A DNA stretch of 64,000 nucleotides from positions 10,352 to 74,351 of the IMG/VR virus record IMGVR_UViG_3300025874_000006. One strand, given 5' to 3'. Position numbers and translations under genes: made by a program. The notes beneath the pieces are model-generated. The model was given only the letters and a program-made list of their open reading frames with translations, ran no database searches and was not told where the DNA came from. This DNA comes from a virus. Below are positions 8,368 to 28,565 of the stretch, in pieces. How positions within the stretch are numbered: the first letter of the stretch is position 1; every line of letters begins with the position of its first letter.

Positions 8368-8522
8368 TATACAATCTCCAAGTCAGATAAAGAGTAACCA
8401 CATAGGGCAAAACCAGATACGCTATAGATAAGTGTCTCGGTAACAGTCATAACGTTGGTTTCCAAAGAACCCACAGAAGCCATCACGAAGAAACCACCCA
8501 ACAAACCTAACATCAATTTCAT
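8367..8522 (-). CDS. Small two-helix membrane protein (start MKLMLG)
   Basis: ATG lies at the end of the left 39-bp repeat, downstream of the early promoter. Confidence 0.6.
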   Translation of the reverse strand: MKLMLGLLGGFFVMASVGSLETNVMTVTETLIYSVSGFALCGYSLSDLEIV

Positions 8523-8730
8523 AATTTTCTCTCTCAACTCAATTTGTACAGACATTATACTTGTTTGTGAAACGAAAGTCAAGGTGTTTGATAGATTATT
8601 TGGTTATATAAAGCGGATAACTATGACATATTGATATAAAAACGGGGATAATAATGCTATAAATGGCTTGTGTTTTCAAAAGAAGTATGAGATAATGTCT
8701 GTACAAATTGAGTTGAGAGAGAAAATTATG
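8520..8730. repeat. Perfect 39-bp inverted repeat (8520-8558 / 8692-8730) enclosing divergent promoters
   Basis: ATAATGTCTGTACAAATTGAGTTGAGAGAGAAAATTATG occurs on both strands. Left promoter TTGACT-17-TATAAT (8554-8582, minus); right promoter TTGTGT-17-GATAAT (8668-8696, plus). Confidence 0.95.
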
Positions 8731-18857: not shown

Positions 18858-19040
18858 TTAACTTCCTCTTGATGCGCCACGAATCATTTTCGTTGCTGCT
18901 CGGTTTGTATTATTTATTTTTAAATTGGGGCCTTGCGTCCCCATTGTACTAAATTGGTTGTTTTCAAAACTAGTAGACTGTAACTTTTCCTTCTTGGCTT
19001 GTGACATCTTTTTGTTACGTGGTTTCTTAGTCTTGCTCAT
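18858..19040 (-). CDS. Small basic protein
   Basis: K/R-rich operonic ORF. Confidence 0.55.
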   Translation of the reverse strand: MSKTKKPRNKKMSQAKKEKLQSTSFENNQFSTMGTQGPNLKINNTNRAATKMIRGASRGS

Positions 19041-19049
19041 AACTAATCC

Positions 19050-19331
19050 TTATGCTAAATCTTTGTCGTGGTTAAGACCACCCTTCTTCTTTTTAACTAT
19101 GAAGGCGTTTACTCGTGCGTGGCCCCATTGTTGTGGTGTCGTGCCTGGACGGTGACCCGTCTTCCATGCTGCGACTCCACGGTTATAAACCTTTTTTAGA
19201 GTCTCTGGAGATATACCTGACTTCTTTGCCTTAGAAGCGATACCGTCTGGGCCTTCTTCCAGATCTAATGTATCATACACTGAATAACGACCTTCGTCAA
19301 GGTATTTCTTAAAATTAATCATGGTTTCCAA
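19050..19331 (-). CDS. Putative internal protein (likely start MINFKK)
   Basis: LKKVYNRGVAAWKTGHRPG.T.QQW..ARVNAF; MINFKKYLDE. Confidence 0.65.
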   Translation of the reverse strand: METMINFKKYLDEGRYSVYDTLDLEEGPDGIASKAKKSGISPETLKKVYNRGVAAWKTGHRPGTTPQQWGHARVNAFIVKKKKGGLNHDKDLA

Positions 19332-25351: not shown

Positions 25352-25536
25352 AATATAATCCAATTCAATTTAATATACCCCTATTATAAAGGATTTGAAT
25401 GGATTTGTCAATAGGTAAATGTGACTAATTTTACTATATTGGTCAAATAAGAATCCCCACGAATACGGGGGCTCTTGTAGGGTACTTTATGTCTTGGAGA
25501 ACCTTAACTTACTGCTCTGGCATTTTTCTCATGCAC

Positions 25537-25561
25537 AAAAAAACCGCCCAAAAGCGGTTTC
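25537..25561 (-). terminator. Intrinsic terminator
   Basis: GAAACCGCTTTTGGGCGGTTTTTTT. Confidence 0.85.
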
Positions 25562-25634
25562 TTCGATGTTACTTGTCGGCTAAGCTTTCTACAGCGTCGT
25601 GAGACTGGAGGCCGTCCCAGAACTCTCACCAGAT
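25537..25634 (-). ncRNA. Putative ~98-nt small RNA with its own promoter and terminator
   Basis: TTGACT-17-TATAAT at 25641-25669; GTGAGA/TCTCAC plus CTGG/CCAG hairpin; intrinsic terminator at 25537-25561; no ATG in the transcript. Confidence 0.65.
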
Positions 25635-25665
25635 GCCCTAATTATAGGCTTTGATAGCAGACGAG

Positions 25666-25728
25666 TCAATCACCGCTGAGAATAGCGGCAGTCATTTCAG
25701 TCAAAGGTATAGGGTCGTGTGTAAACAT
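25666..25728 (-). pseudogene. 20-codon remnant of the exonuclease 5' end
   Basis: MFTHDPIPLTEMTA vs MFKHVPVELTEMTA behind an identical promoter and leader. Confidence 0.7.
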
Positions 25729-25827
25729 AATATAATCCAATTCAATTTAATATACCCCTATTATAAAGGATTTGAATGGATTTGTCAAGGGTGATAGGTG
25801 ACCAATTTAGGACTGTTGGTCACGTAA

Positions 25828-26020
25828 GAATCCCCACGAGTACGGGGCTCTTTATGGTACTCTTATGGTTTGGTGAACCTTAACTTGCGAGAGGTTTAAT
25901 TCTCTGCTGCTTGGCATTTTTAACATGCACGTTTTGAGAGATCGCAGTTATCAAGTTAGTGCGCAATGTTAGGCGCAATGTTCATCTCTTTTAGTACCGA
26001 GCCCCGTACAGTGGGGAAAT
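25828..26020 (-). ncRNA. Putative ~190-nt structured RNA directly after tRNA-Ala
   Basis: Ends pair: TCCCCAC-T-GTACGGGGCTC-GGTACT with AGTACC..GAGCCCCGTAC-TC-GTGGGGA; inner stems TGAAC/GTTCA and TAACTTG/CAAGTTA. Confidence 0.6.
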
Positions 26021-26094
26021 TGGTGGAGGAACGGGGAATCGAACCCCGATCGACGCCGTGCAAGGGCGCAGTAATCCCGTTATACTATTCCCCC
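26021..26094 (-). tRNA. tRNA-Ala(UGC)
   Basis: Cloverleaf, G3:U70 pair, CTTGCAC loop, encoded CCA. Confidence 0.92.
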
Positions 26095-26504
26095 AATAAT
26101 GCTATTACTTCTTCCTTGTATTTACTATGAAACATTTCATGATGATTTGGACATAATGGTATAAGGTTATTTATATCATTGTTATGATGGTTCTCATCCA
26201 TATGATGAACCACCACAATCTTATCAAAACCACATATCCTACATTCTTTAGGATTATGTCGAAAACATAGAGTTCTATAGTTAGTAGCGTTTTTATTCCA
26301 ATAGTCTTGTCTATTATTGGCACAACTTCTACTACAGAATTTAGATTCTGTCACTTTCTTGGTGAGTGCTCTACCGAATACGGTATATGATTCTCCGCAC
26401 CTAACACAGTCTTTACTATGTTCTTTTTCTTCACCAAATCTTTTATTGTAAGCAGCTGTTTGTTTTTGTTTATACTCTTCAGTATGATAACGACCATTAT
26501 TCAT
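26085..26504 (-). CDS. HNH homing endonuclease with zinc fingers
   Basis: CxxC, FCSRSC, CRICG, VHHMD.NH.NN...NL..LCPNHH. Confidence 0.88.
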   Translation of the reverse strand: MNNGRYHTEEYKQKQTAAYNKRFGEEKEHSKDCVRCGESYTVFGRALTKKVTESKFCSRSCANNRQDYWNKNATNYRTLCFRHNPKECRICGFDKIVVVHHMDENHHNNDINNLIPLCPNHHEMFHSKYKEEVIALLGE

Positions 26505-26899: not shown

Positions 26900-27154
26900 T
26901 TACTCTACAGTCAACTGGTCGGCCCATTTCAATTCCTGAATGATTCTATTATACCAATTAGAATCTTCTTCTGAATTGTTCGGATTATCCCTTTCTACAG
27001 TCAATTGTTCTATACGCACAGTTATATAGTCTGTTCGTCTAGACGCCTTACGTGATATCCTATCTAATAACTTTTTCTTCGAACCTGTCAACACTTCTAT
27101 ATTATTATAATCCATTGTCATTACACCCCAAATCTCTACGCGAGTCTTCATCAT
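26900..27154 (-). CDS. Hypothetical protein
   Basis: DYITVRIEQL...WYNRIIQELKW. Confidence 0.55.
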   Translation of the reverse strand: MMKTRVEIWGVMTMDYNNIEVLTGSKKKLLDRISRKASRRTDYITVRIEQLTVERDNPNNSEEDSNWYNRIIQELKWADQLTVE

Positions 27155-28529
27155 TGTTAGTTACACAATTACCACTTGGTAATTCTTCTGGTACATATCT
27201 CATCAAGTCTGAGTCGTATAGACCCTCTTCTAAGAAAGAAATTAAGTTGTCTGTCTCTTCATCAGTCAGACTGAGAGGAACAAACCGATAATCCAAATCA
27301 GTTATCTCTACCTGTGGATGTTCAGGAATACCTGCTACTTTATATCGTACAACATCTGCTATAGATGACATAGAACCACCGTGACCGAATACAGTAGTAT
27401 CTTTAAGATTGTATAGGGGTGGTACCTTAAAGGCAAAATCAGACATCTGGTCACCAGTAAATCCACCACGACCTTTTCGGTCGGCTTCTTTCACTTCACC
27501 AACAGTCTCTTCCCAGATATCCAAGTCATGGAAACCTAGAGTCATAAACACTTCACTCGCCAAAGAACCGACAGGTGAGGATAACGCGGGCCCATTATGA
27601 CACCCTGCACAATTACCTTTACCGAAGAACACCTTCGCACCTTCGACTTGTTCTAGGGTCATAGCATTTTCATCACCTCGCAACAACCTCTGGAAGGGTG
27701 CGCGGTTTGCAAGTACAGTACGTTCATATGCTGCAATCGCAAGTGCAGCTGCTTCCAACATGTCGTCTGGTTGAGATGTACCGTATGCCGCTTCAAACAT
27801 CATCTGATACTTCTCATTAGTGGTAAGGATAGAACCCTCTTCGCCAGGATTAAGTCTATGCACTCCTAGTCCAGCAACCGCCTGAGTCTCCAGACCAGAG
27901 AAGTTACGTAAGTTAGCTTCCTTCGGAGTACCCTCGGTGAAGTGTCGTTCAGGATCTATACCAATATTGACAATACCACCAATCACATTACCGAATTGGC
28001 CATTCCATAACATAACTTCTTGGTATGCGGTATTCAATATAGTAGGCGATGTTAAAGGTTGTACATCAGCAAACTCTTCCATACCTTCCGCGAAATTACG
28101 ATGGTCAAATCCAATACCACCTTCACCAATACCTTGACGAATACCGGACTTAAATCCGTTCTGACCATTATGACAAGATGCACAAGACCATGTGTTGTTC
28201 ATATCGGTTTCATTGGTCTCGGTCGAAGTCATACCAGTTTCATGGAAAAGCAACTTGCCGAGTTCCACCTTATCCGAGGTAATAGGATTACTAGGGTCTT
28301 GTGGGATGTTTAAGAAGTCATCGCTCTCTGGTAGGATATAACCTTCATAGGAACCGGTCGGTGAGGTTACACTCAATATATCACGAAGTTCACCAATAGA
28401 AACTTCTAGAGCTGTGGGTTGTGGGGGCGGAGTAACCGTTATAGGTTCTACCGGAGTAGTCTCAGAACCACCGGAACCACAGGCAGTTAGGAATATAGAC
28501 GATGACAACAACGCAATTTTACTATTCAT
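27105..28529 (-). CDS. Di-haem cytochrome c peroxidase/MauG-family lipoprotein
   Basis: Lipobox LTAC, VELGKLLF, CASCH, WNG, CAGCH, FKVPPLYN, HGG. Confidence 0.88.
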   Translation of the reverse strand: MNSKIALLSSSIFLTACGSGGSETTPVEPITVTPPPQPTALEVSIGELRDILSVTSPTGSYEGYILPESDDFLNIPQDPSNPITSDKVELGKLLFHETGMTSTETNETDMNNTWSCASCHNGQNGFKSGIRQGIGEGGIGFDHRNFAEGMEEFADVQPLTSPTILNTAYQEVMLWNGQFGNVIGGIVNIGIDPERHFTEGTPKEANLRNFSGLETQAVAGLGVHRLNPGEEGSILTTNEKYQMMFEAAYGTSQPDDMLEAAALAIAAYERTVLANRAPFQRLLRGDENAMTLEQVEGAKVFFGKGNCAGCHNGPALSSPVGSLASEVFMTLGFHDLDIWEETVGEVKEADRKGRGGFTGDQMSDFAFKVPPLYNLKDTTVFGHGGSMSSIADVVRYKVAGIPEHPQVEITDLDYRFVPLSLTDEETDNLISFLEEGLYDSDLMRYVPEELPSGNCVTNNDEDSRRDLGCNDNGL

Positions 28530-28565
28530 AATATAAGAGCCTCTCATAACTCTTTTCAATTGTAG

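Follow-up and report, generated by a model that had tools for sequence, protein, structure and literature searches.

What is encoded directly behind the last tRNA gene of this phage's tRNA region? The first-pass annotation of the window (the whole 64,000-nt stretch analyzed, from IMG/VR record IMGVR_UViG_3300025874_000006) described an end-paired element starting right after the CCA of a tRNA-Ala gene, and proposed that it is either a 6S-like RNA or a new class of noncoding RNA. ARAGORN confirms the position behind the CCA, on the minus strand; tRNA-Ala(tgc), which closes the phage tRNA region, lies immediately 5' of the RNA and has the same orientation. Because all ten tRNA genes in the window are on the minus strand, the RNA element reads from 26020 to 25828, with its start placed about 3 nt past the tRNA-Ala CCA. 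The comparative sequence evidence given below indicates that 25828-26020 (minus strand) is a gene for a highly structured noncoding RNA. The locus is organized as follows, R1 and R2 being the first and second covariance models built for the family.

26168..26175, minus: T4-type late-promoter box TATAAATA, 73 nt upstream of tRNA-Ala, in the 3' end of an HNH open reading frame (ORF)
26021..26094, minus: tRNA-Ala, anticodon UGC, with G3:U70 and an encoded CCA (ARAGORN; Rfam tRNA, 59.1 bits)
25828..26020, minus: structured RNA gene, 193 nt (fold; R1, 134.5 bits; R2, 146.5 bits; covariation)
25828-26017, minus: family-model match to the structured RNA (covariance model)
25798..25823, minus: hairpin GUGACCAA..UUGGUCAC, separating the RNA from the next promoter; confined to the window-type subgroup
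25760..25788, minus: sigma-70-type promoter of the downstream unit, TTGACA-17-TATAAT (12/12)
25450..25536, minus: truncated RNA remnant, 3' portion only, part of a duplication with a 377-bp period

The minimum-free-energy fold of 25828-26020 (minus strand) has an energy of -67.7 kcal/mol (z = -7.1), and none of 200 shuffled sequences folds as well. Its terminal helix has 24 pairs (7+11+6), beyond which come an internal loop (AAAAGAGA / CCAAACCAUAAG), a three-way junction, and an apical loop; all of the features read earlier from the letters (an interrupted end helix of about 24 bp, a bubble, and the listed stems and side hairpins) are present in the fold. Its parts are listed here in 5' to 3' order of the RNA.

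25993..26017, minus: P1 5' strand, UCCCCAC-UGUACGGGGCUC-GGUACU, pairing with 25831-25861; predicted by RNAalifold alone
25985..25992, minus: internal loop, 5' side, AAAAGAGA; GAG is common to most members
25980..25984, minus: P2 5' strand, UGAAC, pairing with GUUCA at 25874-25878; compensatory changes in 4/5 pairs
25960..25977, minus: P3 side hairpin, UGCGC-loop-GCGCA; missing from the most divergent members
25952..25958, minus: P4 5' strand, UAACUUG, pairing with CAAGUUA at 25881-25887
25944-25947 and 25907-25910, minus: P5, CUGC paired with GCAG
25931..25943, minus: single-stranded apical segment GAUCUCUCAAAAC; its UCUCUCA is identical in 41/41 members
25914..25928, minus: P6 hairpin, GCAU-loop-AUGC; conserved in sequence and never covarying
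25890..25905, minus: optional hairpin, AGAG-loop-CUCU, in some members only
25862..25873, minus: internal loop, 3' side, CCAAACCAUAAG; a CAUAA-like core is semiconserved
25831..25861, minus: P1 3' strand, AGUACC-auaaa-GAGCCCCGUAC-uc-GUGGGGA (fold and covariation)

Homologues were collected by several routes. A 20-mer from the conserved core occurs at 12 IMG/VR loci, and the neighboring PD-(D/E)XK exonuclease (P0001), used as an anchor, leads to 80 syntenic loci, 35 of which have a match to R1. The second model, R2, was built from the R1 matches and also recovers divergent members picked by eye, while a looser motif and a metagenome scan supplied further members; 26 of the 33 pattern matches in metagenomes, Tara Oceans scaffolds among them, are true members. 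As a control for specificity, chance pattern matches in other viruses and in 80 bacterial loci gave no full-length model match. In viral contigs, most matches to the gapped motif ATCTCTCAAAAC..TTCACC proved to be due to chance, and this route was abandoned. No full-length member is present among the 80 matches listed from a pattern scan of GTDB genomes, and nothing was found with R2 in a sample of 302 genomes that covered two bacterial classes, chosen around a Rhodobacteraceae-type and a Wenzhouxiangellaceae genome.

The family comprises 41 matches, 39 of them distinct, with lengths of 147-191 nt by model match (the window RNA being 193 nt). Its members are marine viral and metagenome contigs together with one GenBank phage, and it belongs to a clade of uncultured marine T4-like myoviruses plus that phage. 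When three members were compared by blastn with 50,697 GenBank phages, the sole relative was Phage C48C1 (OQ984149, Kyanoviridae), in which the element is also behind tRNA-Ala and has a terminal helix whose sequence is different yet complementary. Roseophage DSS3_MAL1 and Erythrobacter phage XM05 were rejected as members, since they share the tRNA alone and have no R2 match. Each genome carries one full copy of the RNA, always at the same locus.

Of the checks proposed in the first-pass annotation, covariation analysis of phage homologues gives a strong signal. In the 39 distinct sequences, standard pairs fill 92.2% of pair cells, compared with 75.2% when partners are shuffled and 27-52% when the register is slid by moving the 3' partner 1-3 columns. 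Compensatory (two-sided) changes are present in 38 of 49 pairs and none of 500 shuffles reaches any of the five measures, in an alignment that was fitted to the family model and so favors the structure. RNAalifold independently recovers P1 with 22/23 pairs compensatory (22/25 for P1 of the model), and a first, MAFFT-only alignment of seven sequences already had 10 compensatory pairs. Changes of this kind are found in P4 and P5 (helices 5-7) at 10 of 11 pairs and, in the homologues, in every listed helix except GCAU/AUGC; even the optional hairpin covaries, as AGAG/CUCU, GGGA/UCCC, and AGAC/GUCU. The TCTCTCA of the apical loop is invariant in 41/41 members. We note that the 3' strand of P1 has an alternative local hairpin, CCCC..GGGG, whose pairing is possible in 87% of cells; because its covariation does not exceed column composition, it was rejected as a conserved alternative fold.

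Which strand and which kind of molecule carry this structure can be read from the same alignment. In P1, G-U combinations outnumber A-C combinations by 31 to 11, which argues that the folded strand is the tRNA strand and that the molecule is an RNA. Insertions and deletions in the family are not multiples of three, no ORF is conserved, and the ORF that starts from a conserved AUGCC varies from 4 to 31 codons across members; the stretch is thus noncoding, and a tag-peptide or small-ORF reading was rejected on the length of the AUGCC ORF. A 31-aa hypothetical protein annotated in phage C48C1 (WJE87956.1) lies wholly inside the RNA gene (L003:2620-2715; OQ984149, 59600-59695), and the coding annotation is probably spurious, a miscall to be corrected. 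These properties also bear on the idea of a DNA-level element, in which the stretch would be a miniature inverted-repeat transposon, a recombination site, or a replication origin. Its inverted-repeat ends are about 140 bp apart, and a partial copy and an insertion scar adjoin it, but there is one full copy per genome at a constant locus, the helix sequences covary freely with G-U pairs on one strand only, and there is no GC-skew switch at the locus, on which ground the replication-origin version was rejected. We regard a DNA-level role as hardly credible.

Is the RNA already known under another name? At gathering thresholds, Rfam 15 gives only tRNA matches in the window, and at E<=10 no family but tRNA matches over the RNA in the window copy and 16 diverse members. 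The searches proposed at the outset with the 6S (RF00013), tmRNA, SRP RNA, and RNase P RNA models gave no match to the RNA in these 17 members; a lone subthreshold match to permuted tmRNA covers the T arm of the tRNA. A literature search on phage C48C1 returned nothing relevant. The family is supported as new, being absent from Rfam 15 and not described in the literature searched, and the suggestion of a new noncoding RNA class, here a conserved, covarying structured RNA without an Rfam 15 match, holds up. The RNA may already be among the 8,495 unnamed IMG/VR candidates of PMC10690425, which are likewise covariation-supported phage RNA motifs obtained by comparative genomics from the same kind of data; no RNA trailing tRNA-Ala is described in the text of that article.

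The other half of the original suggestion, a 6S-like RNA, found no support in the comparisons made here. Such a decoy would mimic an open promoter and sequester the host sigma-70 holoenzyme late in infection, replacing AsiA. Several points speak for it. Like 6S RNA (RF00013; E. coli ssrS), the new RNA is about 185-190 nt long, has its two ends joined in a long helix interrupted by an internal loop, and has similar terminal letters; if it is made from a late promoter, its timing would suit the shutoff of sigma-70 promoters late in infection; and the 151-kb record has no AsiA. However, neither RF00013 nor 6S-Flavo matches at the gathering threshold, and neither does so at E<=10 in the window copy and 16 members; R2 with filters off and a profile HMM run with nhmmer both fail to match E. 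coli ssrS. 6S RNA is a rod with conservation centered on its bubble, whereas the new RNA is phage-encoded, tRNA-linked, and branched, with a three-way junction (P3), an apical loop of ~45 nt, and a small internal loop of 5-9 x 10-16 nt, and its invariant bases are apical, with none in the bubble.

Two further resemblances to 6S RNA, and the matter of AsiA, deserve comment. E. coli 6S does have the termini AUUUC...GAUUC, as the ssrS sequence confirms, but their occurrence in both RNAs is coincidental, since each has an end helix with a G+C base. A stretch of 13 identical nt, CUUAAAACUGCGA, is common to one subgroup and E. coli ssrS (L081:1302-1314 and L287:1091-1103), and a match of this length arose in 1/200 shuffles. 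This 13-mer lies in a covarying, nonconserved segment and on the opposite helix strand, and we therefore judge it to be coincidental. The first reading had seen no asiA in the window, and AsiA is indeed absent from the whole 151-kb record (the T4 control was positive), but it is likewise absent from a complete relative without the RNA, so its absence calls for no substitute and that part of the argument falls. On sequence and structure a functional analogy with 6S RNA is unlikely, and we consider the specific sigma-70 decoy that replaces AsiA to be very improbable.

The same annotation had also described a second, partial copy of the RNA, and had taken its lack of a hairpin as structural variation. 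The copy exists (about 25450-25536, with 87% identity over 59 nt to the 3' part of the RNA), and it does keep the 3' part and lack the AGAG/CUCU hairpin, but it is a truncated remnant. The whole 5' half, with the 5' strands of P1, P2, and P4, is missing, so that neither the terminal nor the inner helices can form. The duplication of which it is part, with a period of 377 bp, also contains second copies of the promoter and of the initial ~14 exonuclease codons (MFTHDPIPLTEMTAA..., then a stop). Neither R1 nor R2 reports the remnant, and its sequence is closer to an L004-type variant than to the adjoining full copy. Because it matches the 3' part only, lacks the 5' strands, is not reported by the models, and is L004-like, the second copy is read from its sequence as a recombination scar rather than a structural variant or an independent RNA. 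The separate small cassette between the repeats (25537-25731, minus) holds a shortened second copy of the exonuclease start (MFTHDPIPLTEMTAAILSGD, then a stop), a further promoter at 25669-25641 that matches at 11/12 positions, and, at about 25540-25570, a strong bidirectional terminator.

The genomic setting of the full-length RNA is highly constant. It is on the tRNA strand, 3-26 nt past the CCA of whichever tRNA ends the phage tRNA region. At 28 of the 29 loci checked it is behind tRNA-Ala, 3-15 nt from the CCA, a count that includes L211, which has no ARAGORN tRNA call and whose flank reads CTCCACCA. The remaining locus has the RNA behind tRNA-Asp, with a gap of 22 nt to the model match and 26 nt from the CCA. 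In a single lineage (L089:1183-1429, and also L177), tRNA-Asp replaces tRNA-Ala, and the spacer repeats the initial ~15 nt of the RNA's 5' strand. RNA-carrying phage genomes have 8-12 tRNAs, with tRNA-Ala ending the main run and adjoining the exonuclease gene; in four relatives that lack the RNA, tRNAs number 0-3 and tRNA-Ala is not among them. The tRNA-Ala(UGC) gene ahead of the RNA comes in two very different forms, one of 74 nt, unusual in its shortened D arm (in the window and L131), and a canonical one of 76 nt (L081 and L003 among others); both keep G3:U70.

Other features of the tRNA region were noted in passing. A 139-aa HNH endonuclease ORF (26085-26504, minus; a weak HNH_2 match) has its stop codon inside the first 10 nt of tRNA-Ala, an arrangement that parallels T4 segB upstream of tRNA-Arg. 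The region also contains a di-heme cytochrome c peroxidase gene (CCP_MauG, E = 1.5e-22; window 27105-28547, minus), with homologues in 3/3 other RNA-carrying genomes and 0/4 genomes without the RNA.

Putative signals for the start and the end of a transcript flank the tRNA-RNA pair. Of 29 loci, 26 have a TATAAATA late-promoter box a short way ahead of the tRNA, most often ~10 nt before the tRNA 5' end; the window is an exception, with its nearest box 73 nt upstream of tRNA-Ala and within the HNH ORF (26175-26168). At the 3' end, family members have GGGGAU(C/U) and a U-rich run, followed within 5-40 nt by the -35 TTGACA of the next unit. When checked as an intrinsic terminator, GGGGAUC with UUUU... 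is clear in most members, and the window copy has only UUCUUACG, which a simple scan does not call. The window-type subgroup (L081, L131, L078, L094, and window 25798-25823) has a second hairpin, G/AUGACYAA..UWGGUCAY, before the early promoter, and the C48C1-type subgroup has a plain U-run in its place.

This arrangement raises the question of whether the element acts purely in cis, as an oversized terminator, an insulator, or a processing trailer that shields the downstream early gene, with no function in trans. Its invariable position between the tRNA and the next promoter would be explained, as would the G+C-rich stem base and U-run at its 3' end, and the local hairpin of the remnant scores as a terminator. 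A terminator, however, needs about 30 nt, and this explanation must contend with 150-190 nt, six covarying helices, and an invariant loop of 7-9 nt far from the 3' end, all kept across 39 variants. We consider a purely cis role improbable.

We favor the explanation, which we regard as probable taken whole, that the element is a stable, late, trans-acting structured RNA released behind the tRNA, most plausibly as a protein-binding decoy or scaffold. The tRNA and the RNA would be made as one late transcript from the TATAAATA box, stopping at the terminator-like 3' end, and the RNA would be freed by ordinary tRNA 3'-end processing, with cleavage of the RNase E or Z type and exonuclease trimming. 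The terminal helix of 24-28 bp would lock both ends and yield a stable RNA. Action in trans is less certain than these transcript and processing steps; as a decoy or scaffold, the RNA would have a protein of the host or the phage as its late-infection partner. We infer the existence, the ends, and the stability of the transcript from sequence signals, and have moderate confidence that the RNA is stable, late, and trans-acting, and low confidence that it binds a protein partner. Two points run against this explanation in the window itself, namely the weak U-run (UUCUUACG) and the location of the late box, 73 nt upstream and in the HNH ORF.

A protein-binding role is favored over others by the pattern of conservation, which extends over several patches: the loop (A/G)UCUCUCAA, the sequence of the GCAU/AUGC hairpin, both sides of the internal loop, and the UCCCC/GGGGA base of the helix. 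Such a distribution is typical of protein-bound RNAs and not of small RNAs conserved in a seed only, and hence points toward a decoy or scaffold. As to the partner, a tentative possibility is a late decoy whose invariant loop captures a host machine, either the sigma-70 RNA polymerase, very improbable by itself, or an RNA-targeting defense or decay enzyme. Presence/absence profiling of 8 genomes yields 27 candidate co-occurring genes, all of which are confounded by clade structure.

The invariant loop could instead act by base pairing. In T4, early mRNAs are shut off by the proteins RegA and RegB, and the loop UCUCUCAA would provide an RNA counterpart by pairing with UUGAGAGA in early mRNAs made from sigma-70 promoters, at their ribosome-binding sites, in a late shutoff. 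The motif UUGAGAGA is the exact complement of UCUCUCAA and lies 5-8 nt before ATG in several early leaders of the phage's own genome (TATAAT..ACAAATTGAGTTGAGAGAGAAAATTATG); it is among the commonest upstream 8-mers (10/753 genes in genomes with the RNA versus 4/631 in those without), GAGAGA is upstream of 30/753 and 12/631 genes, respectively, and the RNA itself is predicted to be late by its promoter box. But the pattern occurs before ATG at 3.3 versus 2.4 per 100 kb, a small difference, and in a duplex-energy scan start regions are not enriched relative to intragenic controls or to genomes that lack the RNA. The complementarity ends at 8 nt, any pyrimidine loop fits purine-rich ribosome-binding sites, and a seed leaves several other conserved patches unexplained. 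We treat the base-pairing mechanism as a minor possibility.

A set of early TATAAT-driven leaders in this genome shares the arrangement ACAAATTGAG-TTGAGAGAG-AAAATT-ATG, at positions 18871-19081 (window about 8520-8730), 144593-144610, and 145724-145741. Two of them head a divergent gene pair, and their purine run is the exact complement of the invariant loop.

Other phage and bacterial RNAs were also compared with the element. The Y RNAs (YrlA, RF02553) that act with Ro60 are similar in being phage tRNA-cluster RNAs with a long stem joining the 5' and 3' ends and a conserved base, but the new RNA has no YrlA match and no tRNA-like module, and the phage has no TROVE/Ro60 gene; a Y RNA/Ro60 reading was rejected because PF05731 is absent from the 151-kb record (controls positive) and YrlA matches none of the 17 members. 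A type III antitoxin RNA (ToxI-like) was rejected because the element is a single nonrepetitive copy and not a set of tandem repeats; its flanking genes encode the HNH endonuclease and the PD-(D/E)XK nuclease, and the search for a toxin family was negative.

By position, the closest parallel is in T4, where the species 1 and species 2 RNAs (rnaC and rnaD) are small, stable, and of unknown function (PMC3014915). These too lie directly behind the last tRNA of the tRNA region and on the same strand, in the layout segB, tRNA-Arg, rnaD, rnaC, which likewise has a homing-endonuclease gene upstream. The likeness does not extend to sequence or structure: R2 with filters off has no match over the T4 rnaC/rnaD region (2409-2672 of L016) and nhmmer has none, the T4 RNAs are 119 and 139 nt compared with 147-193 nt, and rnaC ends in a tRNA-like T arm, which the new RNA lacks. 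By sequence comparison, the new RNA is a positional analogue of T4 rnaC/rnaD, and is not a homologue of either rnaC/rnaD or 6S RNA.

The two T4 RNAs have stood since the 1970s as stable RNAs without an assigned function, placed where the tRNA cluster ends. The finding of an unrelated, identically placed family, conserved in many marine T4-like phages with strong covariation and an invariant loop, suggests that stable RNAs trailing tRNAs recur in this lineage and are no oddity of T4. The consensus structure of the family is well defined, its UCUCUCAA loop is an obvious target for mutation (changed, for example, to AGAGAGUU), and there is a clear hypothesis for its expression, in which a late promoter drives the unit, processing is linked to the tRNA, and the RNA acts as its own terminator. 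If the RNA is indeed a decoy for a host machine, lytic phages would have in it an RNA-based means of takeover or antidefense, and there would be a first lead on what tRNA-cluster stable RNAs do, T4 RNA C and D among them, a puzzle of 50 years' standing.
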